A DNA stretch of 64,000 bases from an uncultured Pseudomonadales bacterium (GCA_964607285.1 CAZSJW010000001.1:134716-198715), one strand, 5' to 3'; shown: positions 1,232-26,014, numbered from the stretch's first letter. The notes: a model not told the origin generated them from the letters alone. Made by a program: numbers and translations.

Positions 1232-1340
1232 CAGGTAAGTGTACCATAGTTTGCATTGTCCGATGGCGGTATTTATCACTGAGTACATGTAAAATTGGTT
1301 AGGTATAGGGTAAACTACGTAAAGTACAAAAAGGGACAGT

Positions 1341-2048: not shown

Positions 2049-2069
2049 TGGACTGTATAATGGGATCCT

Positions 2070-3704: not shown

Positions 3705-3742
3705 TCAGTTAACTGAAATGCTAGATAAATGGGAAGTCTAAT

Positions 3743-4975
3743 TTAGTTTTCAACTTCAGATAACGAAGAAATTCTAGGCATGATTCTACATTTAGGTTTA
3801 AAAACTTCGCTTCTTCTGCCAGTGTAGCTTGCATTACGCTCTTTGGAGAATGCAGAAATATACTTCTGTACCATCTCATCTTCCTCAATGAGGGCAAAAA
3901 TTCTTTGGAAGGGTAAAACTTCATCACCAGCAACTGTATACCTATCTGAGGACAAGTTGTATATTTTTGACAAAGCTATAATAACCTCAACAATCTTTTT
4001 TTCATCACCAGTAATCTCTTCACCTTCAGCAAACATTCCTTTTAATTTGGTTATAAGTCTGTACAACAGCTTGCTACTCTCAAAAGCGAGACGTTTCCTA
4101 GCTAAAGGGTCTTTTTTTATGTCATCTGGCATGCAGTTGCTCAGAATAGAAACGATATACTCATCAAGTTCATATCCTTCTTGATATGCAATATCGAAAC
4201 CCTCAAAAAGAGCAATTATGTATGTAAGTTCGTCTGTAAACTGAAACTCAATACTTCCAGATAAGAGTTTCCATGCCACATTTTTTTCTGCTGTCGATAG
4301 CAAACGACTTACATTTCGTGCCCAATCATCCCGATTATGAAATCGTTTTCTCAGTTCATATAGATCTATAAAATACCTTGTCTTAAACTCTCTGCACAAT
4401 ACATGCAACTTGGTTATTGCTTCAAAGTCATTAGTGTTCTCTTCACCTAACCAATGAACAGAGTTGAAATTCACTTCTTTAAAGTGCTCTAGCATCTTCT
4501 GTGATTTCAAAACTCTCCTGCGATGAAATTTTCTTGTAAACCAGTTTGAGCCAGCTAAATTAAGCTCATGCTTCATTAGGTTTTCAATTAATGTTGTATG
4601 TTGAGATAAAGTTTCAAGTGAAAACTTTTCGGACTTGAAAGGGTGTCGTTGTTCTGTGTGCTCTGACTGATTAGAAGTGTCACGCGATGTATCAATATTT
4701 TCTGTGTCGTCATAATCTGAAGCTGCAGCACTTGTGGCTTTAATTTCTGGAGCAGTTGGAGATAGGTTCATAAATAGCGTTTTACCTAGGGCAAGTGAGT
4801 CAATTAGATTTAAGAGGGATATAGCACTATCAAATGTGCTGGGCCTTTTTCCTAAATATGGGTGTGGAACGGTACCGTCTCCTGTAAGTGTTCTGCGAAC
4901 TGTAGAAATGAACACAGACCAACTTGAGCGTAAATCAACTGTCTCTGCGAAAATATCATCAAACATTGTTTGCAT
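3743..4975 (-). CDS. Hypothetical protein. This is the 410-aa ATG-initiated part of a longer reading frame that continues upstream to about 5475 but is interrupted there.
   Basis: Long intact ORF of mostly alpha-helical character with no motif I can assign. The same frame stays open upstream to an in-frame TGA at 5142-5144. Confidence 0.5.
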   Translation of the reverse strand: MQTMFDDIFAETVDLRSSWSVFISTVRRTLTGDGTVPHPYLGKRPSTFDSAISLLNLIDSLALGKTLFMNLSPTAPEIKATSAAASDYDDTENIDTSRDTSNQSEHTEQRHPFKSEKFSLETLSQHTTLIENLMKHELNLAGSNWFTRKFHRRRVLKSQKMLEHFKEVNFNSVHWLGEENTNDFEAITKLHVLCREFKTRYFIDLYELRKRFHNRDDWARNVSRLLSTAEKNVAWKLLSGSIEFQFTDELTYIIALFEGFDIAYQEGYELDEYIVSILSNCMPDDIKKDPLARKRLAFESSKLLYRLITKLKGMFAEGEEITGDEKKIVEVIIALSKIYNLSSDRYTVAGDEVLPFQRIFALIEEDEMVQKYISAFSKERNASYTGRRSEVFKPKCRIMPRISSLSEVEN

Positions 4976-5475
4976 TATTTTTAGAAACGTGGCTTCATAC
5001 CACTTTGTAGCGTTGATGCCATCTACATCTGTAAACTGGAAAGTATACTCACCAAACTTTACGACAATGTGATGTGGGACTACTCGATTATCTTCGAGGT
5101 GTGAATGGCTGGCTTTTTGTAATAAGTCATATCAGGTAGCTTGAGAGAGCAGTGCTCCGGCAAACTGAATTGCTGAACCAAGATTTATTAGTTCTCCCGT
5201 TTCTTGACCACTAACTATTTCCCGAAAAAACAACTGAAACCCCTGATCTGGGTTTGTTTGATCTTCAATTACAGCAAAGTTTTGTGTACCGACTCCACTA
5301 AAAAAATGTTTTTCATCAGCCTTATCGTTTTCGATTGCTCAAGTTCACCCAATGAATCATCATGCTGTGCTAATCTATCAAAACGTTTTGTTTGATCCGA
5401 CTTTGTTGTAGGTTCTCTAAACGATACATGGCTATTCTGTGCATTGAGTGCTGCCTCATTCAGTGTTGAGTGCAT
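4976..5475 (-). pseudogene. Disrupted 5' portion of the 3743-4975 gene. It carries a frameshift at an A7/T5 homopolymer near 5300-5314 and an in-frame TGA at 5142-5144.
   Basis: The 5475-5269 frame (MHSTLNEAAL...KNIF) reads coherently into a second frame at the poly-A run (..FSGVGTQNFAVIEDQTNPDQGFQLFFREIVSGQETGELINLGSAIQFAGALLSQAT). After a TGA it continues YDLLQKASHSHLEDNRVVPHHIVVKFGEYTFQFTDVDGINATKWYEATFLKIMQTMF, which is the 410-aa ORF. Confidence 0.4.
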
Positions 5476-5589
5476 AGTTGAAAATTGGCATCAATTTTTC
5501 TTAAAAAAAATATTTGTTGGTAAGTAACAATATACAATATTTTCACAAGTCGTGTGTACATTAAAAACTGTAGTACAATACTAGTATCA

Positions 5590-5820
5590 ACCCCACAGCT
5601 TGCCGACACCAAGCAATGTGTAGCGATGCACAGGGTTGTGTGCAAAGTATCTGCCTGAGGTAGACAAAAGCACACCGGGTAAGCCCGTAACCGCTGGAAT
5701 CAAGCCCCGCTTTGGCGGGGGCGAAAGAGGTGGCACCGCCGCTCCAAGTTATACTAAACTGGAAGGCCCTCTTGTGTATCAGTTACTGGTATGCAAGAGG
5801 GTTTTTCTTGTATATCAACA
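5590..5820 (+). promoter_or_regulatory. T-box riboswitch leader for aspS. A likely GAC (Asp) specifier is present, and the element ends in an intrinsic terminator.
   Basis: GAGGTGGCACCGCCG at 5737-5751 matches the T-box consensus AGGGUGGNACCGCG, with UGGC able to pair with NCCA and a G discriminator. Upstream, ...GGTAGACAAAAG... fits an Asp-codon specifier loop. Downstream there is a hairpin, CCCTCTTG (5767-5774) paired with CAAGAGGG (5804-5811), followed by TTTTTCTTG. Confidence 0.6.
5767..5820 (+). terminator. Rho-independent terminator hairpin plus T-tract. This is the terminator arm of the aspS T-box.
   Basis: An 8-bp GC-rich stem, ccctcttg...caagaggg, is followed by tttttcttg immediately upstream of the aspS ATG. 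Confidence 0.6.
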
Positions 5821-5833
5821 CCCGAAAGGCGCT

Positions 5834-7258
5834 ATGCAAACCGCATGCACCACACAAGAAGTACAGAGAACTATGGTTGTCAATTCCTTGGATCATGTTG
5901 GCGAGTCGATCAGGCTTGACGGCTGGGTTGGGAGTAAGCGCGACCATGGCAAGCTCACCTTTATTGATCTGCGCGATCGTACGGGTTCTGTACAATGCGT
6001 TGGGTTTCAGAAAATGGGAGAGCTCACTCCAGAGTCAGTTATCTCAATAGTAGGCAAAGTTAAACAACGCCCAGAGCGGATGGTGAATAAGGAGTCACTC
6101 ACGGGAACAGTCGAAGTAGACGTGGAAAGTTACACGGTACTCAATAAATCACGCGAATTACCAATCCCAATTGATGGTGATGGCTACGAAATCAACGAGG
6201 AGTCACGATTGCGGTATCGCTATCTTGACTTGCGTCGCGAGCGAATGCGCAATATTTTTAACCTGCGTTCCAAGTTTATCCAAGCGCTCAGAGTTGAGTT
6301 GTTTAAGGACGATTTTGTAGAAATCGAGACACCACTTTTGACTAAATCAACCAAAGAAGGTGCTCGGGACTTTATTGTACCTTCCCGCTTCAATCCCGGG
6401 AAGTTTTATGCGCTTCCACAGAGTCCACAACAGTACAAACAACTGCTTATGACCGCTGGTATGGAGCGTTACTTCCAGGTTGCCAAGTGTATTCGAGATG
6501 AGGACTTGCGTGCAGACCGTGGGTTTGAGTTTACCCAGTTGGACGTAGAGATGAGTTTTGTGACACAACAAGATGTGATGCAAACTATCGAGAGGACCGT
6601 AAAATCAGCTGTCAAAGCAGTTGGAGGCAAGTTGCAGCAGGAAGAGTTTCCTGTGTACACGTATGAAGAGGCCATTAAACAGTTCGGCGCCGATAAATTT
6701 GATTTACGGACAGATTCGGAGAAAAAAGAGGGTGTGCTAGCCTTTGCTTGGGTTGTTCGCTTCCCTTTCTTCAAAAAAGTTGACGTCAAAGACGCGGCTG
6801 AGGTAGAAGATGGCAAGAGTGGCTGGACGTTCACGCACAACCCATTCAGCGCACCACTGGAAGAACATCTGCAGTGGCACTTAGCTGGAGAACACCAAGG
6901 CGAAATTTTGACCAGTCAATATGATTTGGTCTGCAATGGCTTTGAGGCGGGCGGTGGCAGCATTAGAGCCCACAACCCCGAAGTGCTGAAAGCAACTTTC
7001 AAAATCATGGGTTACTCCGATGAGCAGATCCAAGAAAATGTCGGGCATATGCTCGAGGCATTTGAGGTTGGCACACCACCACATGGTGGCATTGCGTTGG
7101 GGTTGGATCGTTTGGTGATGCTGTTGGCTGGTGAAGAGTCACTGCGCGAAGTGATTGCATTTCCAATGTCGTCTAGTGGTCGGACTGCAGTGATGGATGC
7201 TCCGAGTGCGATTGGTCCGGCGTTGTTGAAGGAGTTGCGGCTATCTGTGACTAAGTGA
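5834..7258 (+). CDS. aspS: Aspartyl-tRNA synthetase.
   Basis: Motifs FIDLRDRTG, QSPQQYKQLLM, FQVAKCIRDEDLRADRGFEFTQLD and the class II motif 3 [14 protein letters not shown] are all present. The start is set at the ATG at 5834 (MQTACTTQEV...), downstream of the leader; the track's 5636 start lies inside the T-box. Confidence 0.9.
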   Translation: MQTACTTQEVQRTMVVNSLDHVGESIRLDGWVGSKRDHGKLTFIDLRDRTGSVQCVGFQKMGELTPESVISIVGKVKQRPERMVNKESLTGTVEVDVESYTVLNKSRELPIPIDGDGYEINEESRLRYRYLDLRRERMRNIFNLRSKFIQALRVELFKDDFVEIETPLLTKSTKEGARDFIVPSRFNPGKFYALPQSPQQYKQLLMTAGMERYFQVAKCIRDEDLRADRGFEFTQLDVEMSFVTQQDVMQTIERTVKSAVKAVGGKLQQEEFPVYTYEEAIKQFGADKFDLRTDSEKKEGVLAFAWVVRFPFFKKVDVKDAAEVEDGKSGWTFTHNPFSAPLEEHLQWHLAGEHQGEILTSQYDLVCNGFEAGGGSIRAHNPEVLKATFKIMGYSDEQIQENVGHMLEAFEVGTPPHGGIALGLDRLVMLLAGEESLREVIAFPMSSSGRTAVMDAPSAIGPALLKELRLSVTK

Positions 7259-7339
7259 TGAGAGTATTATGACAACTTGACTAGAGATATGATCCTGATC
7301 ATACTCCTGTGAGGACATGCTTATTTTGTATGATAGCTT

Positions 7340-8395
7340 ATGGTCCATGAGAGAAAACTAAAACTCGAGCAACAACCCACGATTCAACTAATGGAGGAGC
7401 ATGAAACCGCATTGAGCTTAGTGTTCTCTTCGCTAAATGGTTTAGTACGGCAACTATCAAATTACTCGCAATTAAGTACGCGACAGTACGACGAGTACGT
7501 TGTCCAAGTTGATTTAGATCAGCAGATAAAAGCATTTGAAGAACATAGAGCTAGCTTTGGCTAGTAGATCACTTACAATTCATGACACGCTGCGATTCGC
7601 ACAAATGCGAAATAATTCGGCACGCCTCGATGCCATGAGAAATGAGTGCAACGACTCTATCGACAAGATGTATGTGCAAACTCAAAGACACATTTTGGAT
7701 GGGTTTAAATATGTTAGCAAGGCGAATGCCGCATCTGTACGGACAATAGAGTCCAAGCTCAGTGTATTGAAAACTGCAACTACAGTGGGGGAAGTTCTTG
7801 CAGTCGATGTATTAATCAGCAGGTCGTAGAATATAAGCATGAATTGCCATTCAGACACGTAGTGAGTAATTGGGTCTCTCCTATTCTAAAAGGAATCCAA
7901 AGCATTTTGATAGAGCATTACTCTTTAACTGCTGTGATATCTAATGCGGTTTTTTCATCCGAGACGAATAGTGAACTAGTAGGTGTGTTGGAATCACAGG
8001 TGATTGTGCCAGATGATGCGAGCTTGCAGCAGGGTATGCCATTTCTTGATACCAAAGAAATGTTTCGTAGACTGGGACCTGCATTTTTGCAGATAAAGGA
8101 GGAGGTTGTTGCAGAAGTTTTAGAGGCACAAGTTATTCTCAAAAGAATGCATTCTGCTGATGCATCTGATGATGTTTTGCCAATGATCTTATTGCTTACA
8201 CAAAAATTTAAAATTCAAGAGACAGCATTTAAAAACTATGTTAACGCTTTACCGCCACATGAGTTGCTTTTTAAGGTGCCTAGAATTGAGCTGTTTGGGA
8301 ACCGAAAAGACGATTCATTTGGTATGCTGTATGAGAAATTTGTTTCCATTCCTAGAAAAGTGAAGCTTGAGCATAAGTATAGTACGAAGCTTTGA
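7340..8395 (+). pseudogene. Decayed paralog (X') of the intact 409-aa gene at 15737-16966. It is split into three ORFs by a frameshift and an internal deletion with premature stop.
   Basis: ORFs 7340-7564, 7536-7829 and 7844-8395 align in order to the N-terminal, middle and C-terminal parts of the 15737 protein. Examples are LSTRQYDEY vs LSTRQYDEF and LPFRHVVSNWV..KFKIQETAFKNYVN..IELFGNRKDD vs LPFRHLMSDWV..KFKIQETAFKNYVN..IELFGNRKDD. The segment ...TELERLGWEFPGAVV... of the intact copy is missing. Confidence 0.65.
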
Positions 8396-8478
8396 AAGTA
8401 TTACTAGTTAAGCCTATTGCGCAACAAAGTTGTATGCAGTACGCTCACATATAACACTTATGCGAATGAGGGGGACAT

Positions 8479-9009
8479 ATGGGGGGCGAAGGACTAACTG
8501 CTAGTTATCAATTTGTTTGGCAACACCTAAAGCAAGGCATCATGAATGAGTTAGTGAAATATAGGATTCCACATACTGATTTATTATATGATCTTGGGCA
8601 TAAAGGAAGATCTTTTGATGATTTTAAGATAGATGCAGATTTCTTTGAGGGACAAGAAGAGATAGCATTAGATGCTTTTTTTGATTCGCAAGCTAGTAAG
8701 ATTGAAGACTATGTCGTCAATCGATCAAAGGAGTGGGAGCAAATTGGGATAGACAAGCTGCTCAAACTTGCCTCAAATGATCCAGATAAGGATTCCAAAA
8801 GCTACGTAGCAATGAGCGAACTACTAATAAATGAGTATCAAAAAAAAGAAATATCTGGTAGTCAAAAAATTTCACTCCCACCTTCAGACATACTAAGCAA
8901 GCTGTTTATGTTTGCAGAGTTAACAGCGCAGCTTAGATTTACCGCATCAGCTCACCGAGAGTATAAATTGAGCGAAAAAATTAATTTTAAGAAGTTTGAT
9001 GAAGTGTAA
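8479..9009 (+). CDS. Hypothetical protein (ORFan). First gene of the AT-rich island.
   Basis: 176-aa ORF preceded by a GAGGGGGA RBS-like sequence. No recognisable motif. Confidence 0.45.
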   Translation: MGGEGLTASYQFVWQHLKQGIMNELVKYRIPHTDLLYDLGHKGRSFDDFKIDADFFEGQEEIALDAFFDSQASKIEDYVVNRSKEWEQIGIDKLLKLASNDPDKDSKSYVAMSELLINEYQKKEISGSQKISLPPSDILSKLFMFAELTAQLRFTASAHREYKLSEKINFKKFDEV

Positions 9010-9044
9010 TGAACTCATAAACATCAAAAGCAAGAAATGAACAT

Positions 9045-10349
9045 ATGGCAAGTGAAAATGCAGGTCATACTAGCATAGGTTTTCAGAAACAGGATTTACC
9101 AGATTTCGATATTCCCAAGGACAATCTATTTGTCGTTCGACAGACCGACGCAGGGTCATATCTTAGTGGTTCTGAATCTGTATTGAATTTATCAAACAAA
9201 GCAGCTGTTGAGAATTTGATGTCTTGTTATTCTTCACTTTTTGATGAGAATGTGCAAGTTGATACGACAGACCTTTCGGTATTTGTAGATTCAGCCAACG
9301 AAAACGGCTGCACAGTTAGATTTATAGAAGCTGGAAATGATAAAGCGATTGTGTATTTTAACAAGAATTATGCTGAGATAATTGCATCAGATCAAAAATT
9401 GTTTAGCAAGATTAGCAGTAGAGACAGACATAGAGTTTCAAATTTGAATAGGGGTATCACTGCAAAAAATTGGAAAGAATTCGGTAATGAGAAGTTGTCA
9501 TTCTCAGAGTCTGAGATAGCATCACTTGCAGAAGAAGTTGTCAAACAATTAGACCGAAATTCTGACCCCGAGTTAAGCGAGGAACGATTGTTGATTCATG
9601 AGCAAAGTCATTTAGTGGATAGAAATAGAAATGTTCGTGGAATTTCTGTTGTTGCAAAAATCAATAGTTTAAATGCCGAGCTTGACCAGATTAAAACAGC
9701 TTTGCTTGATTCAACCTCTGATGAATCAAATTTAAATTATGAAAAACAAGAGGTGATATCGCGAATTCGGGAAATTATGAGACACATGATGCTAATGCTT
9801 TCCATGATGGAAGCAGAATCCATGCTACATGAAACTTTTGGTAGGGTTGTAGAGTCGCCAAACACATATTTCCATGGACAAATGTTGCTGAGAATTGGGG
9901 AAGTTCTGGGCGAGCTGAAATCAAAAGAGGGTCAGGTATCCGATTTTGAGTATGACATTCGCAATCTTTTTTACGGCGAAAACGATGGATTTGCTTCTAG
10001 TCAGCATGCATTAGGAGCCGTAATTCTTATCTTGGGAGAAAAAGTATTTAAGAGGGATGGGAGCGGTGAAATTGATTTCGAATCCTTACTCCCGGAAGAT
10101 ATGAGAGCACATTCAGTAATGGAAAAGGCGAACTACATTGGTGCAGTTGTTCTCAAAAAAATTGCGGAAATAACTATTCACCACGATGAGTATGTTAACG
10201 AAGTAATCAGTAGTGATTTCAAGTCAAAGCTTGTAGAACAAATTGGTTTATTGCGAGCTTCTACTTTAAAAAAGATTGCTGAACTAAAGCATGGTTATGC
10301 TGAAATACTAAGTAGTCAACATTTTTCGAAGGATGACCAACTTATTTAA
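9045..10349 (+). CDS. Hypothetical protein (ORFan), 434 aa, predicted helical.
   Basis: Intact long ORF 36 bp after the preceding gene. No catalytic motif recognised. Confidence 0.45.
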   Translation: MASENAGHTSIGFQKQDLPDFDIPKDNLFVVRQTDAGSYLSGSESVLNLSNKAAVENLMSCYSSLFDENVQVDTTDLSVFVDSANENGCTVRFIEAGNDKAIVYFNKNYAEIIASDQKLFSKISSRDRHRVSNLNRGITAKNWKEFGNEKLSFSESEIASLAEEVVKQLDRNSDPELSEERLLIHEQSHLVDRNRNVRGISVVAKINSLNAELDQIKTALLDSTSDESNLNYEKQEVISRIREIMRHMMLMLSMMEAESMLHETFGRVVESPNTYFHGQMLLRIGEVLGELKSKEGQVSDFEYDIRNLFYGENDGFASSQHALGAVILILGEKVFKRDGSGEIDFESLLPEDMRAHSVMEKANYIGAVVLKKIAEITIHHDEYVNEVISSDFKSKLVEQIGLLRASTLKKIAELKHGYAEILSSQHFSKDDQLI

Positions 10350-10577
10350 AGAGTCTCAAATTCGTGCTATTGATTCGCTGTTAAGTAACAGTCTTGGAAC
10401 TCATAGTGCCACCATGCAACCTGAAGATTTTATGAAACAGTTTATTTCAGCCTTCTCAGAATAATATTGCATTCCCATTTAGCAGTCGCAAAGTTGTGAT
10501 AACATTTTTCGATATGTACAGAAAAAAAGTAATTTCTCTCGTTGCATTGGATTTCGTTTCACTGCTATTATCAAATA

Positions 10578-11207
10578 ATGACTAACGAACTTGTGAATTC
10601 AGCAACGTCGGCTTTAGACACATCAACTAGAACAATTAATACACTAACCAGAACAGTAGGAAGCACACTTGCGGTGCCTATGAATCGGTTTTTAGTTCAG
10701 TTAGATGAGAATGAAGCTAGACAACTCGAGATTGCTACTACGCACGCGCACGCGGTGAGACAAACTGCGCAGCGTTCGCTATTGAATACGGACGGCGGAT
10801 TTTCAGAAGTTACTCAAACTGCACAACAGCAGCGATTTAATTCTACTACTTTTACATTGTCGGATATTCTGACACAGGGTGATGAAAAAACTGAAACAAC
10901 AAAAACGGATAAGATGTGGGGATTCTTCGTAACGCACCGCCGTTCAACTCAATCAGGAAATAAAATTTTTAATCAAATGCAGAATGAGACTCAACGAGCG
11001 GAATCTTCAAGTAACCTTGCAGGTACAACAGGGTCTACTAAAGACCGTTTTGCCAAAATGGGTAGATCTCTAACACCGGAGTCGGTTGCTCAGGTATGTC
11101 GTTCATATGAAATTGCATTAGATCAAGGGGCTTCGTTTAACCCATTCGAGACAAAGAAATTGATGTCAGAAAGACTTAGTTTTTTGCAGTCGGTTCGCAG
11201 TAGCTAG
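10578..11207 (+). CDS. Hypothetical Thr/Ser/Gln-rich protein (ORFan).
   Basis: ORF in the same orientation as its neighbours. The start is taken at the ATG at 10578 (MTNELVNS...). The composition is low-complexity. Confidence 0.4.
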   Translation: MTNELVNSATSALDTSTRTINTLTRTVGSTLAVPMNRFLVQLDENEARQLEIATTHAHAVRQTAQRSLLNTDGGFSEVTQTAQQQRFNSTTFTLSDILTQGDEKTETTKTDKMWGFFVTHRRSTQSGNKIFNQMQNETQRAESSSNLAGTTGSTKDRFAKMGRSLTPESVAQVCRSYEIALDQGASFNPFETKKLMSERLSFLQSVRSS

Positions 11208-11220
11208 TAGTGCTTATGAG

Positions 11221-13056
11221 ATGTCGACAATTGGTCTTCAAAGGATGCAAGAGGGATTACCAGAAGAAACGCTGAATAGAGCTGAAGTAGATAGGCAGCA
11301 GCTGGTTTTACTCTACATGGAGATTGGTCTCCAAGAATTCATACAGGGCTTTGATTTGTTACTCGAAAGTGCTTCAGTACATGATTCAGCACAGCAATTG
11401 ATGACTTTAGTCAACTTGGCTTATGAATTTAATCAGGAGTTTGGTAAAAAATTGTTGACACGCTGGGCTGAAAAGTTGCCAGATCAACTTCCAGAGGTTA
11501 ACTGCGCATTTTTTATTGCTTACTCTCAGATGTTTAAGAATGGAGTTTCGAGCAATTGGTTGCCAGAGACACAGAGAGAATTTCTTGATGGAATGAGTTT
11601 CATACTTCCCACATTGCTGAATCATGATGCTCCAGCAATTGTTATAAGTACACTAAAAAAATTTCTCCTCGATATTTTCATGAGTGATGGAAATAATGCA
11701 GCCAAAGTGAGACTTTATGAGGTATATGTTGAACAACATGCAGAAGAATTGGGAGCTGTAATTAAATTAATATTTGATACACAAGTTAAGTTGCCCAGTG
11801 AAGTTGTACATAAATTGTTACCGACAGTTTCAACAGAACTATCAGCAAAGAACTCATCTACAGAAAAGGCAGCATTACTGATTGGAAACACAAAAGATGC
11901 AGTAGATATTGTGAATTATTTGAGGAATCTAGTAACAGATTCTCAAGAGTTGGCTTCAGTGGAATATCAATTGATTGTGGCTCTTGTGAAGCGATTTGGT
12001 GAGAATGAGTGGAAAATTCCAAATACTCGATTTTATCGAGCTGGATTCTCAACCGATGAAGCACCAGTGCTAATGAAACTTGTCAAAGAAGGTTTTTCGC
12101 CGATTCTTTTAACTGTAAAGGGATATACTAATATTGCAAACGAGTTGAGCTGGATTAAAGAAAGTTTCATATTACAAAATCAATCTGTACAATTGACTCT
12201 TGATCCTCGGTTGCCCCAATCGTATGAATCATTTCGCGAGACCGGATATGCAAGACAAGTGTTTCCTGATTTACATTGGCTAGAAGAGTTTATAAAATGC
12301 TATGAATTAATTGAACAAGATCCAGTTCAAGTAGAGAATAATCTTTCTGAGGCTATTCAAATATTGACTGAGTGGTGGGGTTCAAGGAGTGCTGCACTCA
12401 TGTTTGATATATATTTGAGAAGTGTGAATGCTGATGCACTGAGCAGCTTTAAGCGTATTGTAGCAGGATTGCGGCAGATACATGGTCAAGAGTTGCAGCG
12501 TGGACTAATTGAAGCAATCGATAAAAGATTTTTAGCAGATCAGTTGCAAGAACTATCACATTTTGAAGCTCTTTTAGTTCAATCAGTTTCAGAACTTAAG
12601 AGCATCAAACTTGGATTTCTTGAACGAAGAATGCGCAAACAGATTGATGCAATTGTCGTACAAGCTGAAGGTATTATTTCTGAGATAAATGATTTAAAAA
12701 ATAACATCGATAATACAACAGTATCGCTTGAAGGAGCATATGCTCTGTGGAAAAATGTTGTAAAGATGAGCAGAGAATTTAAACAGATATTTGTTGATCG
12801 TTCTTCTAGGCTGCATAGCATGCGAGAAGTATTAACAGCTAGTAGACTCACGACAGAAAACCGAGAACGTCTTTATACTGCATATCAGAGAATTTCTCAG
12901 CTTGCTAGTTACGAAGCAGATAGAACTGAAGTTGGTGCAATAACTGGATATAAAATAACCAAGTTACCCGCACCATTGACTTTTTTTCAAAAAATGACCG
13001 AAGGTAGAATCCATATTCTACAACACCTCACAGCAAGTACGAATCCTACGATCTAA
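11221..13056 (+). CDS. Hypothetical large protein (ORFan), 611 aa.
   Basis: Intact ORF starting 14 bp after the previous gene. No Walker, HEPN or nuclease motif recognised. Confidence 0.45.
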   Translation: MSTIGLQRMQEGLPEETLNRAEVDRQQLVLLYMEIGLQEFIQGFDLLLESASVHDSAQQLMTLVNLAYEFNQEFGKKLLTRWAEKLPDQLPEVNCAFFIAYSQMFKNGVSSNWLPETQREFLDGMSFILPTLLNHDAPAIVISTLKKFLLDIFMSDGNNAAKVRLYEVYVEQHAEELGAVIKLIFDTQVKLPSEVVHKLLPTVSTELSAKNSSTEKAALLIGNTKDAVDIVNYLRNLVTDSQELASVEYQLIVALVKRFGENEWKIPNTRFYRAGFSTDEAPVLMKLVKEGFSPILLTVKGYTNIANELSWIKESFILQNQSVQLTLDPRLPQSYESFRETGYARQVFPDLHWLEEFIKCYELIEQDPVQVENNLSEAIQILTEWWGSRSAALMFDIYLRSVNADALSSFKRIVAGLRQIHGQELQRGLIEAIDKRFLADQLQELSHFEALLVQSVSELKSIKLGFLERRMRKQIDAIVVQAEGIISEINDLKNNIDNTTVSLEGAYALWKNVVKMSREFKQIFVDRSSRLHSMREVLTASRLTTENRERLYTAYQRISQLASYEADRTEVGAITGYKITKLPAPLTFFQKMTEGRIHILQHLTASTNPTI

Positions 13057-13095
13057 GAAAATGTGTATTAGCTAAAATCCTAATAGGATATTACA

Positions 13096-13587
13096 ATGAT
13101 TTCACAGGAACCTCTGTCTAATCCTCTCAAAGAATCCGATATAACTAATAGAGCTGAATTGCAGTCCATATTGAGAATTTTACCTCCAGATTTATCAGAA
13201 CGCATTCAGATAACTTTTCCGCAACCCGAACTATTTGTTTCACAAATTATTATTGGAATGAGGAAAATTATTCGTTTCTATGAATCGAAGGAAGACGTTA
13301 ATAATGCTCGTTTATCAGCTGCATTGCTAGACTCTTTGAAAAAGGAGTTCAGGACTCTCTCACCTCGAGAGTTTAGAGACAACTTATTTTTAAGGAGCAC
13401 TATAGCAGTTGCAACAATTTCCTTCATCTTCGCTTTGATTTCTGGTGATGTAAGTGATTTAGAAACAAAAGTTCTGGGAGTTGAATTACTTGTGCTTGCT
13501 ATTTCGTATTTTAATTTTATTTATAATAAGCCACGCTCAGTAAGTGCTGTCACACTTTTCAGAAATGCACTGCAAAATAATGAATAG
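13096..13587 (+). CDS. Hypothetical protein with a C-terminal transmembrane segment (ORFan). Last gene of the island.
   Basis: 163-aa ORF with a hydrophobic stretch, IAVATISFIFALISG...LLVLAISYFNFIY. Confidence 0.4.
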   Translation: MISQEPLSNPLKESDITNRAELQSILRILPPDLSERIQITFPQPELFVSQIIIGMRKIIRFYESKEDVNNARLSAALLDSLKKEFRTLSPREFRDNLFLRSTIAVATISFIFALISGDVSDLETKVLGVELLVLAISYFNFIYNKPRSVSAVTLFRNALQNNE

Positions 13588-13721
13588 GATGTAAGCGAAA
13601 GAAATCTAATATTTGCTGTTTATGCAATCTTATAATTAGTGGCAGCAACTGCAATAATTCCTTGGAATCGAATTTGCAATTGTTGAAAACTCTGGCGAAA
13701 TGGATCCTCTAAGAGATTGCT

Positions 13722-13755
13722 TAAGAATGTCTGATTATTAAGAATGTCTGATTAT
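13722..13755 (+). repeat. Perfect tandem duplication of a 17-bp unit.
   Basis: TAAGAATGTCTGATTAT occurs twice back to back (13722-13738 and 13739-13755) in the non-coding stretch between the island and the dacA remnant. Confidence 0.8.
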
Positions 13756-13968
13756 AAGGAAAATTATAGTGCTTTGTATGAAAATGACAAAACAGGATTG
13801 ATAATCATGGTCAGTTCCCGACAGATATTTGAAACCCTGAGCACTGGTCAAGCAAAAAAATAGGTGAAGAATTATCCAAAACTTCCATACTTGGTATTCC
13901 AGAGTGGGTGCTGCCACAACAGGCCTAGCCTATAGGCAACATTAAATTCAACTAGTACAATTTCAGGT

Positions 13969-14700
13969 GTGCAACTTCGCTTCGATCAGTATGTAAGTCT
14001 TACCCTACTTTGTGGCGCCCTACTGCTTTCTGGCCTAAGCCAGCCAATAAGTGCATCGCAAGAACCCGGTTCAGTATTTCTGTTGGAAAAACCAGAAATC
14101 ACGATCCCAATCACCGACTCAACCGTGGCAGAACCAGAAATAACCGCCACCTCTGCAATCGTCATAGACGAACAATCTGCAGTAACGCTCTTTGATAAAA
14201 ACTCTCAACAGCAATTTTCCCCAGCCTCCACCACCAAACTAATGACCGCCTTAGTCGCCAGGTCAATTTTTGAGCTAGACATGGCGTTATCAGTTCCCAG
14301 CATTGTCAGCGCCCTTGACGGCACCCGCATGGGGTTAGTCCCAGGTGAGCGACTATCTGTGCAAGCACTGCTCAAAGGAGCGTTAATGCAGTCTGGAAAC
14401 GATGCAGCTATAACGCTAGCTAGTGCACACCCCGCAGGTATAGACGGTTTTATCTTAGATATGAACTTATTAGCAAAGATCTATCATCTAGATCACACCT
14501 CATTCAAAAACCCAATAGGCTACGATGCACCAGAGAATTTTTCGACAGCAAGAGATCTTGCATTGTTAGCCAGATAAACAATGCAAGATCCAGTACTGCG
14601 CAAGATCGTTGGCACAACCGAAGAAGCGGGTGAAGTTCTCATAACTCAATTTATGCTAGGAAATCAATCTATTTTGGTTTTAGTCATGGGAAGTAAAGAT
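13969..14700 (+). pseudogene. Truncated and decayed copy of D-alanyl-D-alanine carboxypeptidase (dacA'). The N-terminal two-thirds are present, followed by a deleted C-terminal remnant fused to an aspS fragment.
   Basis: The 202-aa ORF is about 70% identical to the 17036 DacA over the SxxK motif (PASTTKLMTALVAR) and the SGN motif (QSGND). After the stop, the frame-shifted remnant [32 protein letters not shown] matches the DacA C-terminus with internal deletions. Confidence 0.65.
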
Positions 14701-14897
14701 TTGAAGTTGGCACTCCCCCACACGGTGGTATTGCTCTAGGTCTAGATCGATTGGTGATGCTTTTGGCTGGTGAAACCTCGCTGCGAGAAGTTATTGCGTT
14801 TCCAATGTCCTCTAGTGGTCGGACTGCGGTGATGGACGCGCCGAGTCTGGTTAGTTCGGCGTTGCTGAAGGAGTTGCATTTATCGATCAAGCAGTAA
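14701..14897 (+). pseudogene. Orphan 3'-terminal fragment of aspS (last ~65 codons plus stop), duplicated from 7062-7258.
   Basis: It translates to ..[62 protein letters not shown], against the aspS end ..[62 protein letters not shown]. Nucleotide identity is about 85%. Confidence 0.75.
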
Positions 14898-14968
14898 CTT
14901 ATTCAGTCTATAGCAATTATTAAACGTGATCCAGTAATCTACCTCTAATCTAGCGTTGCAAAATTGGG

Positions 14969-15656
14969 GTGAAACAAATAATGCCCAAGGAGACAAATCG
15001 TTACTATGAAAAATACTTGTGGACAGTACAGATAGTAATTGTTATGTTTTGGGTTTATACTATTCTTAATGCAGTAAATTTTTGGAAAAAGGACAAAATG
15101 AACAATCCAGATACTGATTTAAGTCCTGACATAGAAACAATATTGCACCAGTATCAAGAAATGAGCCAACTTGGTGAGAGAAAAAAAATTTGTGGATTTC
15201 TTCAGTCAAGCTGAAGAAGGGCTCAAAGAGAAACTGACTGCACATTTAGAAGAATCAGACCCAAGAGAAACTGCGGTGATTACATTCATGTCCACATTAG
15301 TTCAGTTCGTGAAAAAAACAGGACTAACAGTCAGTTTCCCAGGGACTGGTAGCCGCTTTTACGAAAATAATCACCAACCAGAGGATGATGATTTATGGGA
15401 AGAGGCAGTGAAACCTTTTCTCAATAAACAAACCTTTTTAGACATGGAATATATTGTAGTAAATAGAAAAAGTGCTGCTAAAATGAAGGATCAAGTATCT
15501 GGGAATAGGAGCTTTACATTTTTGTCAGCCGATGTCGACTTGTTTATACTGTTCCCAACAGGTAGAATTTCTGGTGTATTGAGCACAGAACAAACAAGTA
15601 AGCTCTATGTCTTGCTCACGTCTGCAGGTATTGTGGGAGCAAGTGCTTGGTACTAG
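14969..15656 (+). CDS. Hypothetical protein with an N-terminal TM helix. It is probably a single gene interrupted by a frameshift in an A8 run at about 15181-15188.
   Basis: ORF 14969-15214 (..EMSQLGERKKICGF) and ORF 15171-15656 (MVREKKFVDFF..) overlap by 44 bp across GAGAGAAAAAAAATTTG. Joining them there gives one continuous ~228-aa protein. Confidence 0.35.
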
Positions 15657-15736
15657 AGCAGCAAGTTTCTGTGTTGAAATAATCAACAATTCTTTCCTCA
15701 GCTTGACTTGAGAACTCTGCCAAATCATACTCCACT

Positions 15737-16966
15737 GTGGACACACATTTTGTGTGCGTGATTATGGAGTCCGAACAACAGCTAAAACAAGAACAAAAAT
15801 CTGCATATAGCCTCTTGGAGCAGTATGCGAGTGAGATGCGTTCTATGCTTTTCTCGCTGAAGCATGTAGCACGGCAACTTGGCATTTTTTCAAAATTAAG
15901 CACCCGACAATACGATGAGTTCACCAGGGATGTGCAACCAACTCAGCAACTAGAAAAAGTACGAGATCTTCAGCAGATTCTTGCAGGTAAAACCTTGACA
16001 ATTAATGAGGAACTGCGTTTTTCACAATTGAGGATCGAGTTGTTTCGACTTGAATCAGCACTGCAGGATTGTAGAGATATCATCAACCAAAAGTATTTAC
16101 AGTCTCAGACTGCTATTGTGCAGGGGTTTAGGTATGTGAGAAAGGCTGATGCGGTTTCTGTACGTGCTACTGAGTCTCAGCTTGTCACTTTGCGTTCTGC
16201 AGCAACTGTCGGCGCAGTTTTTGAAGTGATGACAGAGTTGGAGCGGCTTGGTTGGGAGTTTCCTGGTGCTGTTGTGTCTGCAAGAACAGTAGATGGAGAT
16301 GGGTTGCTACGGCTCAGTTCAGAAAAACCAGCGTCAGTCCAAACTGAATGCTCACAGTTTGTTACAGGATGCATAAATCAAACTGTGACTGGATATCAGC
16401 ATGAACTGCCATTTAGACATCTAATGAGCGATTGGGTTCGTACTTATTTTAAAAAAATTCAAAGCGTTCTGATCGAGCATTATGCAGCAGTAAACTCAAT
16501 ATCAGGCACTGTTTTTGCGTCTGAGACTAACAGAGAGTTACTGACAGTGTTGGAATCACAGATAGTAGTGCCAGATGATGCAGGGTTGCAGAAGGGTACA
16601 CCCTTTCTTGAAACCAAAGAAATGTTGCAGAGATTGGGACCTACATTTTCGAAGCTGAGAGAGGAGATCATAGCAGAAGTTCTTGAAGCGCAGCAAATAC
16701 TTTCAAGAATACAATACGCAGACTCAACGGAGAATATATTGCAGCATATCTTGCTGCTTACACCAAAATTTAAAATTCAAGAAACTGCTTTTAAAAACTA
16801 TGTTAATGGTTTGCAGCCACATGAGTTACTGTTAAAGGTTTCCCGAATAGAGTTGTTTGGAAACCGTAAAGACGATGCGTTTGGTGTGCTCTATGAAAAA
16901 TATGTTTCTGTCCCTAAAAAAGAGAGAAGCTTAAACGAACATGCCAAGTTACTAAAATCTTACTGA
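15737..16966 (+). CDS. Hypothetical protein X, the intact member of a duplicated family. Function unknown.
   Basis: 409-aa intact ORF. It is the paralog of the fragmented 7340-8395 locus. No known domain recognised. Confidence 0.5.
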   Translation: MDTHFVCVIMESEQQLKQEQKSAYSLLEQYASEMRSMLFSLKHVARQLGIFSKLSTRQYDEFTRDVQPTQQLEKVRDLQQILAGKTLTINEELRFSQLRIELFRLESALQDCRDIINQKYLQSQTAIVQGFRYVRKADAVSVRATESQLVTLRSAATVGAVFEVMTELERLGWEFPGAVVSARTVDGDGLLRLSSEKPASVQTECSQFVTGCINQTVTGYQHELPFRHLMSDWVRTYFKKIQSVLIEHYAAVNSISGTVFASETNRELLTVLESQIVVPDDAGLQKGTPFLETKEMLQRLGPTFSKLREEIIAEVLEAQQILSRIQYADSTENILQHILLLTPKFKIQETAFKNYVNGLQPHELLLKVSRIELFGNRKDDAFGVLYEKYVSVPKKERSLNEHAKLLKSY

Positions 16967-17035
16967 TTGTGGAACATAAACCAGCACAGATGTAGTATTA
17001 TGAGAACAAACGTACATATCAACTAGATAAACAGT

Positions 17036-17962
17036 GTGTCACTTCGGCCAGATCAATATATTTCCATTGCTGCCATTAGCGTTGTCTTAGTGGTAGTGGG
17101 AGTTATCAGGCCAGTTGGAGCAGCTGATACATCTAGGACGTTTCTGTTGATCGAGAAATCTGAATTTGTGTTGCCTGTTATTGACCCAACAGTTGTGCAG
17201 CCACAAGTAAGTGCTGCTGCAGCGATTGTAATCGATGAGCAATCTGCCGTTACTTTGTACGAAAAAAATGCTACTGTCCAGTTTCCACCAGCTTCGACAA
17301 CCAAGTTACTAACAGCACTTGTAGCTCGATCAATGTATGAATTGGACGCTGTACTCACTGTCCCAACACTGGTAACCGCACTGGATGGAACAAGAATGGG
17401 ACTTGTTCCAGGAGAAAAACTTCCCGTTTCAGCACTGCTGCAGGGAGCACTCATTCAGTCTGGTAATGATGCAGCCTTAACACTGGCAGCAGCACATCCA
17501 GCTGGTGTTGGAGGGTTTGTATCAGAAATGAACTCGAAGGCAGATTTTCTACATCTCACTCAATCAAATTTTACTAACCCAATTGGGTATGATGCACCTG
17601 GACAGTTGGTTACGCCAAGAGATCTGGCATTGTTAGCCAGAGAAGTAATGAAAGACCCTGTGCTCAGAAAAATAGTTGGCACTGCTAAGGTTCAGGTATC
17701 AGATACTAAAGGGGCGATTACCCATGACCTTGTGACTACACACAAACTTTTAGGTGTAGATCCCACTGTGATTGGTATAAAAACAGGTACAACTGAAGAA
17801 GCTGGAGAGGTATTGATCACTCAGTTCAAGAGAGATGCTCAATCCATATTGATTGTGATTATGGGTAGTGATGACCGCTACAAAGATACACAAGAGCTAA
17901 TTGAGTATGTAAGAACTGCGGTACATTGGGAAACAGTATTTAGCGTACCAGAAGCCCGATAG
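17036..17962 (+). CDS. dacA: D-alanyl-D-alanine carboxypeptidase (serine-type, PBP5/DacA family) with an N-terminal signal or TM segment.
   Basis: GTG start followed by a TM helix. Motifs SxxK (PASTTKLLTALVAR), SGN (QSGNDAA) and KTG (GIKTGTT) are present. Confidence 0.8.
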   Translation: MSLRPDQYISIAAISVVLVVVGVIRPVGAADTSRTFLLIEKSEFVLPVIDPTVVQPQVSAAAAIVIDEQSAVTLYEKNATVQFPPASTTKLLTALVARSMYELDAVLTVPTLVTALDGTRMGLVPGEKLPVSALLQGALIQSGNDAALTLAAAHPAGVGGFVSEMNSKADFLHLTQSNFTNPIGYDAPGQLVTPRDLALLAREVMKDPVLRKIVGTAKVQVSDTKGAITHDLVTTHKLLGVDPTVIGIKTGTTEEAGEVLITQFKRDAQSILIVIMGSDDRYKDTQELIEYVRTAVHWETVFSVPEAR

Positions 17963-17995
17963 TTTGGGTACTTGTGTGATACCATAAAGGGACAT

Positions 17996-19291
17996 ATGCA
18001 GATAACAGTTATAGGTACGGGGTTTGTTGGTGTAGTTTCAGCAGCTGTCTATGCTTCATTTGGTAATACTGTATACGGAATAGATATTGATGCTCAGAAA
18101 ATTGAGTCACTTCGTGCTAGCACTGTGCCATTTTATGAACCAGGCCTGCAAGAGTTATTACTTGAACAGCAAAAATCGGGTAATTTATCATTTACCACAA
18201 AGTATGAAGAGGCAGTACCTGCTTCTGAAGTCATTATCATTGCGGTTGGTACCCCATCTGCTGCTGATGGTGGCGCAGACTTGAAGTTTGTGTTGTCCGC
18301 AGCGCAATCAGCTGCAGAGCACTTACAAGAGAACGCAATTGTAGTGATTAAGTCGACTGTTCCCCCTGGCACACTACAAATAGTCGCTGCAGAACTTGCA
18401 AAGCACACACAAAAGAAATTCTTCATTGCTTCTTTGCCTGAGTTTTTACGTGAAGGGACAGCAGTTCACGATACGCTTCATCCAGATAGAATAGTGATCG
18501 GTACAGATGCACCTGAAGTTGCCGAAAAGCTATCAGAACTTCACAAGCAGCTAGCTGCACCAATTGTCATAACTAAACCCCAGTCTGCACAAATGGCAAA
18601 GTACGCTGCAAATGCTTACTTGGCATTACGTATCACCTTTATTAACCAGATAGCTGATTTATGCGAAAAAAATGGCGCAGATGTTGAGGAAGTTGTATCC
18701 GCTATTGGGTATGATAAAAGGATTGGCTCACATTACTGGTATCCAGGTCTTGGGTACGGTGGGTCATGTTTCCCTAAAGATGTGAAAGAACTCGCGCACT
18801 ACTCCAAACAGGTTGGTGAAAATGATAACTTGTTCATTAAGGTCAATGAACTGAACACAGATAGAATTCCCAGGTTGATGGACAGTTTTGGCAAAGAAGT
18901 TGGTGGATGGGAAGGAAAACAAGTTGCAGTCCTTGGTCTATCATTCAAGCCAAATACTGATGATATGAGGGAAGCACCTAGTCTTTCAGTTGTTCCAGCG
19001 CTACTGGCTGCGGGTGCAGTTGTTCGTGCCACAGATCCTAAAGCAATCGATGTAGCACGAGCTCAACTTCCTCCGTCGGATAGGCTCACTTTCTTGCAAA
19101 CTGTTTCAGAAGCGTGTATGGGAGCTGATGTGATCTTGCTTTTGATCGAGTGGCCCGAATATGTGACGCATGAGTATGGTAAGTATCGTTCAAACACAAC
19201 ACAGTGGTTTATTGACACAAGAAATCAGCTAGATCCAAAGGTTGTCACTGAGTGGGGTTACACCCACCGTGGAATAGGCAGAGGTGCATGA
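17996..19291 (+). CDS. ugd: UDP-glucose 6-dehydrogenase (nucleotide-sugar dehydrogenase family).
   Basis: MQITVIGTGFVGVVSA (Rossmann fold), the catalytic GGSCFPKD and a C-terminal UDP-binding domain. Confidence 0.85.
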   Translation: MQITVIGTGFVGVVSAAVYASFGNTVYGIDIDAQKIESLRASTVPFYEPGLQELLLEQQKSGNLSFTTKYEEAVPASEVIIIAVGTPSAADGGADLKFVLSAAQSAAEHLQENAIVVIKSTVPPGTLQIVAAELAKHTQKKFFIASLPEFLREGTAVHDTLHPDRIVIGTDAPEVAEKLSELHKQLAAPIVITKPQSAQMAKYAANAYLALRITFINQIADLCEKNGADVEEVVSAIGYDKRIGSHYWYPGLGYGGSCFPKDVKELAHYSKQVGENDNLFIKVNELNTDRIPRLMDSFGKEVGGWEGKQVAVLGLSFKPNTDDMREAPSLSVVPALLAAGAVVRATDPKAIDVARAQLPPSDRLTFLQTVSEACMGADVILLLIEWPEYVTHEYGKYRSNTTQWFIDTRNQLDPKVVTEWGYTHRGIGRGA

Positions 19292-20219
19292 GGTCATACT
19301 AATAACGGGTGGCACTGGGTTTGTGGGCACACACCTGATGCAGTTACTCGCCAAAAGGCAGAATGAGATTCACGTGACATCACTAAGTGGTGAGTCAGTT
19401 TCTGTCGGAGAAGTACAAGTACATCAAATTGATCTTTGTGACTCAGAAGCTACTAGAAGTTTGTTTGCCAAAATACAGCCAACTCAGGTGTATCACTTGG
19501 CATCTCTGGCTGCAGTTGGTTCGAGTTTTGGGCAGGCTGAAACCGTTCTTTCACAAAACACGAAGCTGCAGCTGTCTGTACTGGATGCGGTAGTAGCAGA
19601 GGCGAAGGAAGCACGGTTCCTTCACGTCAGTTCTGCAGAAGTATATGGTACAAGCTTGCCTGATGAATTGCCTATAACAGAACAGCATCCGTTTAGACCA
19701 TCAAACCCCTATGGTGTGTCTAAAGCCACTCAGGATTTATTGACAGGGTGCTATGCACAGATGTATGGTGTACAAGCGATTCGAGTTCGGCCGTTTAATC
19801 ATATCGGTGCAGGACAAAGTGCTGCATTTGCAGTACCAGCATTTGCTAAACAGTTAGTTGCTATTGAACGTGGAGCAGAACCAGTTTTGCAGGTGGGCAA
19901 TTTGCATGCTATTCGTGACTTTACTGATGTGGAAGATATTACTCGTGCATATGAGTTGCTCATGCAGGTAGGCGTACCTGGGGAGGTATACAATCTTGGT
20001 TCAGGCACAGGATATAGTATGCAAGATGTTTTAAACCAAATGATTGAAGTACTAGACATACCATTAGATATGCAAGTTGATCCAAAAAGACTGAGACCAC
20101 TTGATATTCCAGTCATGGTAGCAAATAATGCTAGGATGAGGGAACTGGGTTGGGAGCCAACTATTTCACTTTCAGAGTCACTTAGGCGTATTATTGAGTA
20201 TTGGAGATCACGACCATGA
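19284..20219 (+). CDS. NAD-dependent nucleotide-sugar epimerase/reductase, best guess GDP-4-keto-6-deoxy-D-mannose reductase (Rmd) or GDP-fucose synthase-like.
   Basis: [14 protein letters not shown] Rossmann fold and a [11 protein letters not shown] (YxxxK) motif. It lies immediately upstream of gmd, with a 4-bp overlap. Confidence 0.55.
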
Positions 20220-22368: not shown

Positions 22369-22372
22369 GGGT

Positions 22373-23941: not shown

Positions 23942-23960
23942 TTTGGTGTATGATACTGTT

Positions 23961-26010: not shown

Positions 26011-26014
26011 CAGT

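Follow-up and report, generated by a model that had tools for sequence, protein, structure and literature searches.

A tandem-duplication-like aspS-X-dacA array in a patescibacterial genome is probably a footprint of recombination between diverged lineages

Homology-facilitated illegitimate recombination (HFIR), as defined in work on Acinetobacter, Streptococcus pneumoniae, Pseudomonas stutzeri and Escherichia coli conjugation, anchors one end of a linear foreign DNA by homology and joins the other end illegitimately (PMC3240628). The outcome is a net gain of non-resident DNA, with some resident loss, and a joint that falls within genes at non-homologous positions. A displaced-remnant model has been proposed for T6SS (type VI secretion system) effector-immunity, Rhs and contact-dependent inhibition (CDI) arrays of Vibrio cholerae, in which an incoming allele, entering via a conserved upstream anchor, pushes the resident 3' part downstream, leaving orphan 3' ends and immunity genes downstream of the incoming module (PMC5361080). 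Among Patescibacteria, experimental evidence for DNA uptake and recombination comes so far only from cultivated Saccharibacteria, for which PMC10187176/PMC10633639 report natural competence and recombination-based gene replacement. Here we describe a 64-kb window of DNA (GCA_964607285.1; the window genome, W) whose organism is a patescibacterium and in which the 3' end of aspS, a gene that we call X, and dacA occur twice in the same order. We argue that what looks like a textbook tandem duplication is probably a pseudo-duplication, produced when two diverged lineages within a single Patescibacteria clade recombined and the block at about 1300-14699 was brought in. The process would be a known one in a little-studied phylum and not a new kind of system.

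Copy 1 of the array consists of the 3' end of a working aspS, a degenerate X (X') and a degenerate dacA (dacA'), and copy 2 consists of an aspS remnant (aspS'), X and an intact dacA. Coordinates count from the first letter of the window, and the elements of the array are as follows.

5636-7258, plus strand: working aspS, given as the maximal open reading frame (ORF); NCBIfam aspartate--tRNA ligase model NF001750, 577 bits against a cutoff of 443
7273-7329, plus strand: conserved stretch of 57 nt 5' of X', paired with 15699-15755 at 70% identity (repeat search, family D4)
7340-8395, plus strand: X' pseudogene, from tblastn matches in frames 2/3/2 and nucleotide alignment
8479-13587, plus strand: five intact ORFan genes (176, 434, 221, 611 and 163 aa) that form the cargo of copy 1, lying between X' and dacA'
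13969-14699, plus strand: dacA' pseudogene, orthologue of the relatives' single-copy dacA, from Pfam PF00768 (13969-14577), tree and alignment
14699-14700, no strand: illegitimate junction of dacA' codon 280 with aspS' codon ~476, out of frame, from a three-way nucleotide alignment
14700-14897, plus strand: aspS', stranded 3' end of a second aspS allele, 65 codons and a stop, with no lesion, from nucleotide and protein alignment
15099-15656, plus strand: ins2, split homologue of a 200-aa ORF in the relatives L084 and L085, from tblastn (40% identity over 164 aa)
15764-16966, plus strand: X, intact, an all-helical ORFan of 400 aa (public protein P0001)
17036-17962, plus strand: intact dacA, an S11 D-Ala-D-Ala carboxypeptidase; Pfam PF00768, 151 bits against a cutoff of 27.6

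Alignment of the two copies by BLASTN and at the protein level, a check suggested in the initial annotation, gave significant matches for all three pairs. Self-BLASTN of the window returned three direct, co-linear repeats, all well above chance and with no other repeat beside them: the aspS 3' ends (7060-7238 against 14699-14877; 83.2% identity, gapless, E = 6e-48), X' and X (7831-8368 against 16393-16932; 73.6%, E = 4e-88), and dacA' and dacA (14155-14615 against 17222-17682; 66.7%, E = 2e-28). At the protein level, the stretch 7322-8359, read in frames 2/3/2, matches residues 4-395 of X; 13969-14700 matches residues 1-280 of dacA with 54% amino acid identity, and 14700-14888 matches residues ~476-538 of aspS. 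The longest exact k-mer common to both copies is 18 nt. In a three-way nucleotide alignment, dacA homology gives way to aspS homology at 14699/14700 with 1 to 2 nt of microhomology, and the junction joins non-homologous positions.

Much of what had been annotated from the sequence was borne out by these alignments: the recurrence of aspS end, X and dacA in one order, the direct run of dacA' into an aspS fragment as a novel head-to-tail junction, and the placement of a full aspS to the left of the array and a full dacA to the right (NF001750 and PF00768, respectively). The aspS ends had been put at about 85% identity, and this repeat was recovered at the slightly lower figure given above. Large insertions had been noted in both copies; they are present at 8396-13968 in copy 1, where they include the five intact ORFs, and at 14898-15698 in copy 2, where the inserted sequence proved to be a gene with a homologue in L084. 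An intact X of 409 aa had been placed at 15737-16966, and the gene is indeed intact, with a start that is most likely the ATG at 15764 (400 aa, as in P0001). Degeneration of X and dacA in copy 1 was also as described. The lesions in X' are an extra nucleotide near 7545 and a 139-nt deletion at 7805; together they remove 138 nt, a multiple of three, such that the frame recovers after the deletion and only 7545-7805 is out of frame. The double stop read in X' sits upstream of its ATG at 7340. In dacA' we found a TAA stop at 14575-14577, a 108-nt in-frame deletion at 14610/14611 that removes the KTG motif, and the cut after codon 280; ASTTK and SGN are still there. The decay is not reciprocal, as had been proposed, since the inactivating lesions lie in copy 1; what copy 2 has to show is the stranded aspS' and an ins2 that may be frameshifted. 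A shift of frame within the A8 run at 15181-15188 breaks ins2 into two ORFs, which could mean that ins2 is a pseudogene, that the run is a site of slippage, or that the sequence is in error here.

Intact dacA carries ASTTK, SGN and KTG, which places it in peptidase family S11. The working aspS also matches TIGR00459 (507 against a cutoff of 374), as expected of a bacterial aspartate--tRNA ligase equivalog, and its true start probably lies about 60 codons inside the maximal ORF. Its recognizable domains are the anticodon-binding domain and the class-II core only, the bacterial NCBIfam model being matched in two stretches, and no GAD-domain match was found in it with Pfam. The insertion domain of about 120 aa that bears this name in bacterial-type aspartyl-tRNA synthetase thus appears to be absent from the aspS of W, and the aspS genes of the relatives are likewise short (474-489 aa).

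We compared the gene order of the window with 80 Patescibacteria loci and with contigs of the closest relatives, 85 related loci in all. The relatives compared are all metagenome-assembled genomes (MAGs); L083 belongs to GCA_964493195.1, L081 to JGI 3300005126 and L084 to SRR29109023. In 68 of the 80 loci aspS is followed by a single dacA on the same strand, usually less than 300 nt away and often with ugd next in line, and in none of the 85 related loci does a further aspS or dacA lie within 10 kb. The relatives share a long order with the window, secDF-CCA(minus strand)-DUF3592-recJ-...-aspS-dacA-ugd-epimerases-GT2-PMT_2-GT2-MptA-PMT. In L081 and L082 dacA directly follows aspS across annotated gaps of 24 and 63 nt, respectively, with no X; the aspS-dacA gap of L083 holds two minus-strand ORFans, and that of L084 and L085 holds a 314-aa ORF and the 200-aa ORF related to ins2. 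Because the relatives carry a single aspS-dacA without X, the ancestral arrangement, as judged from gene order, is aspS-dacA and not aspS-X-dacA, the order that the initial annotation had suggested looking for.

The two dacA copies of W are not sisters. In a protein search, the best full-length orthologues of dacA' were those of L083 (P0005, 84%) and L081 (P0006, 76%), followed by P0007 (76%) and P0008 (63%), whereas the intact dacA of W reached only 59%. In a neighbor-joining tree of the dacA clade (500 bootstrap replicates), dacA' grouped with L083 and L081 in 100% of replicates and with L083 in 83%; dacA' and dacA were sisters in 0 of 500. An earlier dacA tree, built with our own distance code and without the close relatives, had misleadingly paired the two W copies as sisters, which illustrates how much sampling matters here. 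Intact dacA is 61 to 68% identical to every relative at the amino acid level, no protein among 5.8 billion exceeded 68%, and the gene is not orthologous to the relatives' dacA clade. By Nei-Gojobori counts, dacA and dacA' differ at a proportion of synonymous sites (pS) of 0.79, which is saturated, and at a proportion of nonsynonymous sites (pN) of 0.25. Relative to its orthologues dacA' is not accelerated, apart from a mild terminal excess: its unique changes number 25 synonymous and 14 nonsynonymous, compared with 30 and 5 in L083 (Fisher p = 0.06), which suggests relaxed constraint on the dacA' terminal branch. The aspS 3' ends behave in the same way. The working copy grouped with L083 in 88% of replicates and with aspS' in 0.8%; over the last 189 nt it is 87.8% identical to L083, and the complete protein is 94.8% identical to that of L081 and 95.4% to that of L083.

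The aspS' remnant is informative because it would have been dead from the moment a duplication created it. Over 65 codons, the aspS 3' end and aspS' differ with pS 0.51, pN 0.09 and a ratio of nonsynonymous to synonymous change (omega) of 0.11; that is, the differences are almost all synonymous. The stop codon of aspS' is kept, and there is no premature stop and no indel. For a fragment dead since duplication the pair omega should be near 0.5, and in simulations with one constrained and one neutral branch, matched to the observed pS (2,191 matching runs), pN lay between 0.23 and 0.33, a stop codon was gained in 68 to 79% of runs, and the observed pN of 0.09 was reached in none. Nor can a small ORF explain the constraint on aspS', because its first 17 codons, which lie upstream of any possible start and just downstream of an in-frame stop at 14694-14696, contain 12 differences that are all synonymous. 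Compared with 80 working aspS genes, aspS' averages 74.3% identity and the working copy of W 72.2%, and pN between aspS' and working aspS genes (0.076-0.104) falls inside the span found among working pairs (0.047-0.104). Given the low pN, the synonymous pattern and the rejection of the neutral model, aspS' belonged to a working aspS, under protein-level constraint, through almost the whole of its divergence, and the junction is therefore young relative to the divergence of the copies. We conclude that the array is not the ancient tandem duplication in this genome for which it had been taken. Non-sister copies and a constrained aspS' together imply that each copy was a working gene of its own during the divergence, the simplest case being two separate genomes, and it is very likely that they come from different lineages, whichever of them was the resident.

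Identity and composition along the window delimit a block of about 13.4 kb that includes copy 1 up to the junction. The genes and limits that matter for this block are listed here.

1-1221, minus strand: CCA-adding enzyme gene, partial, running off the window, the left "backbone" flank (tblastn against the L081 CCA gene)
1300-14699, plus strand: block with specific L081/L083 affinity, ~13.4 kb, from site patterns, nucleotide identity and third-position composition; the left limit is approximate (1222-1350)
1341-2048, plus strand: DUF3592-family gene, intact, Pfam label from the L081 orthologue; 89.8% amino acid identity to L081 and 68.5% to L084
2070-3704, plus strand: recJ, intact, DHH/DHHA1/RecJ_OB label from the orthologue; 82.7% amino acid identity to L081 and 64.1% to L084
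3743-4975, minus strand: ORFan of 410 aa (ORF call) in the recJ-aspS slot, with a low third-position G+C content of 0.309
17972-27580, plus strand: surface-glycan locus (ugd, two epimerases, GT2, PMT_2, GT2, MptA, PMT), the right flank, star-like among W, L081, L083 and L084

Site patterns are given as the number of sites at which W agrees with L081, W agrees with L084, and L081 agrees with L084. Genes of the block show a strong excess of the first class: 56:6:3 for DUF3592, 123:23:19 for recJ, 41:6:8 for aspS and 45:17:14 for dacA'. The CCA gene immediately to the left is star-like (31:25:32; pairwise amino acid identities of 74.6, 73.2 and 74.9%) and differs from the adjacent DUF3592 gene (chi-square p = 1.8e-9), and intact dacA to the right of the junction is at 27:30:35 (p = 4e-4 against dacA'). 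Star-like patterns were also found in ugd, the first epimerase gene (epi1), pmt and a HATPase gene at 27629. Nucleotide identity between W and L081 climbs from about 68% to about 79% at ~1351. G+C content at third codon positions (GC3) changes along with these patterns: conserved genes of the block have values of 0.415-0.50, L081 genes have values of 0.40-0.55, and the values of intact dacA (0.317) and of ugd (0.339) fall in with the background of 48 large ORFs of the window (mean 0.349 +/- 0.047). Copy 2 does not stand out as foreign by base composition alone. Together with the star-like CCA gene, this leads us to prefer the polarity in which the block is the import and copy 2 is the resident. 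A single import with both ends inside the window accounts for both flanks, and the resident role of copy 2 is in keeping with its intact genes and with an ins2 homologue at the same slot in L084.

From these observations the following course of events can be proposed. The resident locus would have read CCA (minus strand)/DUF3592-recJ-aspS-ins2-X-dacA-ugd, and a linear fragment from an L083/L081-like donor, carrying DUF3592-recJ-(ORFan)-aspS-X'-five ORFans-dacA (codons 1-280), would have entered the cell, perhaps by natural transformation, by analogy with cultivated Saccharibacteria. The left end of the fragment would have recombined homologously near the CCA/DUF3592 boundary, and its right end would have been joined illegitimately to resident aspS codon ~476, at what is now 14699/14700. 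Donor alleles would thereby have replaced resident DUF3592, recJ and aspS codons 1-475, and a redundant X' and a truncated dacA' would have been added, later gaining a few inactivating lesions. The resident aspS 3' end would have been stranded as an almost undamaged remnant, and resident X and dacA would have stayed intact. The lesions are indeed few despite saturated dS, the synonymous divergence, between the copies: X' has two, and dacA' has two in addition to its truncation.

This proposed import resembles the described systems to different degrees. It resembles HFIR in that the incoming DNA is of a different lineage (discordant topologies of block and flank, and GC3), one end is joined at non-homologous positions, the joint lies within genes, and DNA would have been gained as some resident sequence was lost; the homologous anchor of HFIR would correspond to the left end, which shows no scar. 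It differs from the experimental cases in being inferred from a natural footprint, in a homologous end without a visible crossover, in a microhomology of only 1 to 2 nt, and in that what counts as "foreign" is the same locus in a homeologous version, for which reason the product mimics a tandem duplication. The stranding of aspS' parallels the orphan 3' ends of the displacement arrays, but in W the genes are housekeeping genes (aspS, recJ and dacA), a single event is seen, and the remnant bears no sign of being kept by selection. With an in-place tandem segmental duplication the array shares head-to-tail co-linear units and a chimeric junction of unit end and unit start; it departs from one in its non-sister copies and in a truncated fragment with a history of purifying selection. 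If correct, the array is a clean natural case of additive gene replacement in Patescibacteria, caught when the displaced aspS remnant and the dying dacA' and X' are still visible.

Several observations weigh against an import of the block. The signal shifts between 1222 and ~1350 with no remnant or duplication there; a crossover is invisible when the resident allele is gone, and the left crossover is accordingly not seen. No genome of the donor lineage or of the pre-import state is among those sampled, and two unsampled lineages must both hold X at the same slot, with L081, L083 and L084 lacking it. Allowing for gene-specific expectations leaves a modest contrast in GC3. The pS to L081 is 0.45 for aspS' and 0.535 for the working aspS, which fits a distant resident backbone less well, and the neighborhood is mosaic elsewhere (L086 and the star-like ugd), such that the assignment of "backbone" and "import" rests on few genes. 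The junction is known from one assembly only, and 1 to 2 nt of microhomology is shorter than is usual for HFIR joints.

The same footprint could have been left by the reverse exchange, which we consider unlikely, though by no means negligible. Here an L083/L081-like genome would be the resident, and distant DNA carrying aspS (from codon ~476)-ins2-X-dacA and reaching into the glycan locus would have been joined into resident dacA at codon 280 and recombined homologously downstream; with working copies provided by the import, X' and the cut dacA' of the resident would then have decayed. Such an exchange fits the sharing of relationships by dacA' and the working aspS with DUF3592 and recJ, and the cut in dacA' would make an incoming dacA useful at once. 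It also draws on the glycan locus downstream, which is hypervariable among all relatives, as would be expected of a surface-polysaccharide locus that is often swapped; a mild excess of sites shared by W and L081 in pmt2 (61:42:43), gt2b (26:11:13) and mptA (70:32:58) could mark a return to native DNA at ~22.8 kb. O-antigen and capsule loci switch via conserved flanks and likewise place a hypervariable glycan locus with discordant alleles beside conserved genes; under the polarity that we favor, by contrast, the event did not swap the glycan locus. Under the reverse exchange the star-like CCA gene to the left of the block would have to be explained separately, the roughly 6:1 pattern of the block occurs nowhere in the 10.5 kb to the right, and it is the block, not copy 2, that is the GC3 outlier against the 43 other ORFs of the window. 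The right-hand limit of the discordance cannot be placed, because the glycan locus is equally divergent among all relatives.

Explanations that do not involve two lineages in this way fared worse. Co-linear repeats and a novel head-to-tail junction are exactly what an ancient in-genome duplication from the interior of aspS to the interior of dacA, followed by decay of copy 1, should leave, yet we regard such an origin as highly improbable: the copies are not sisters in either gene, aspS', dead on arrival, shows neither the elevated omega nor the stops and indels of a dead sequence, dacA' has not run ahead of its orthologues beyond its terminal excess, the relatives of the dacA' lineage are single-copy, and the discordance between DUF3592/recJ and CCA is left unexplained. 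A low omega in aspS' and a junction of young age would both be accounted for if a full aspS-X-dacA unit had been duplicated or acquired long ago, both aspS genes had long been functional, and a recent deletion from codon 281 of the first dacA to codon 475 of the second aspS had created the junction, with the relatives losing the second unit independently; repeat collapse by recombination makes such parallel loss mechanistically easy. That history is very unlikely all the same, as it requires a redundant essential gene to persist through at least two speciations in small genomes and at least three independent losses that always kept the copy-1 type, when none of the 85 related loci contains two aspS or dacA genes within 10 kb, and it explains neither the block limit at ~1300 nor the GC3 contrast. 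About equally improbable is a chimera of two co-occurring related populations, formed at 14699/14700 during assembly or amplification. The source is probably a MAG, as all the relatives are, and a 30-mer across the junction had 0 matches in metagenome contigs of the Joint Genome Institute (JGI). However, a non-homologous join with 1 to 2 nt shared and no shared k-mer above 18 nt offers a graph assembler no path, and the inactivation of dacA' in three ways and of X' in two is expected only if working copies were present in the same cell. The direct repeat of a gene 3' end around ~7.4 kb of mostly ORFan DNA is superficially island-like, and one could picture an integrative mobile element that supplied a replacement 3' end to aspS, the two aspS ends being attL and attR. 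We give this the least credence: among the ORFs between the repeats there is neither an integrase nor a recombinase, and none of them matched PHROG or PADLOC, there is no tRNA gene, att sites do not explain homologous X and dacA after the repeat, and the right end lies inside dacA, unlike an att core. Neither an excised circle of the segment at 7259-14699 nor an occurrence of it next to aspS in unrelated genomes was found.

Gene X is the least familiar component of the array. The comparison of X with X' gave an omega of ~0.2 at a dS of ~1.6, which shows X to be a real gene that evolved under constraint, even though it is seen in a single genome among about 15 billion public proteins. A word-index search returned only X itself, and phmmer against 1.84 billion representatives returned only X and two X' fragments. 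X had no locus in a scan of JGI metagenomes and no match in Pfam, NCBIfam, PHROG, PADLOC or the PDB sequences. An AlphaFold2 model from a four-row alignment was all-helical with a predicted local distance difference test (pLDDT) score of 40.8 and was unusable. If the copies come from two lineages, X must occupy this slot in two or more unsampled lineages. The five cargo ORFs had no Pfam, NCBIfam, PHROG or PADLOC match; searches of the PDB and of IMG/VR viral contigs covered the ORFs of 434 and 611 aa and returned nothing for either. Neither the five ORFs nor X matched anything in the 85 related loci, and the cargo in the aspS-dacA gap of 20 other Patescibacteria loci was unrelated to X or the island genes. 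The 410-aa ORFan upstream of aspS had no PHROG or PADLOC match and no match in L081-L085.

We tentatively raise a broader idea, which at present seems rather unlikely: that the aspS-dacA gap, and the recJ-aspS gap with it, is an exchange slot of this Patescibacteria clade, in which lineage-specific ORFan operons pass from one diverged lineage to another by homeologous recombination in the flanking housekeeping genes. Were this so, delivery of the five cargo genes at 8479-13587 would be the reason that the event described here was kept. X would then be restricted to the clade, with purifying selection acting on it in two or more lineages outside the present sample, and in ultra-small genomes poor in integrases the housekeeping flanks would be the landing pads through which genes are exchanged. 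Whatever the fate of this idea, the aspS-dacA neighborhood can be flagged as mosaic across several lineages.

Other contigs add to the picture of variability around aspS. The recJ-aspS gap is a second variable slot: L081 and L082 carry ORFs of 176 and 120 aa there (7324-8250 in L081), L086 carries a 176-aa ORF (7613-8143), and L083, whose short contig does not include recJ, has a 120-aa ORF upstream of aspS. Along 3038-10924 of L086 (GCA_018062735.1), identity to L081 is 85 to 91% in CCA, DUF3592 and recJ, 86.7% in aspS and 55.6% in dacA, a drop that points to another recombination breakpoint, between recJ and aspS, in other lineages. To the right of the array, ugd is 70 to 76% identical in every pair among W, L081, L083 and L084, though aspS is 95 to 96% identical between three of them; for L083 and L081 the values are 72.5% for ugd and 96% for aspS. 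The ugd-epimerase-glycosyltransferase-PMT locus thus behaves like a hypervariable surface-glycan locus. In more distant Patescibacteria (L064, at ~11400-13400, and L078, L039, L073 and L072), the aspS-dacA gap is occupied by unrelated ordinary genes, which by eye we take to be TrkH/TrkA-like, YbaK-like and FemAB-like. Across distant Patescibacteria, then, the aspS-dacA site gains insertions repeatedly.

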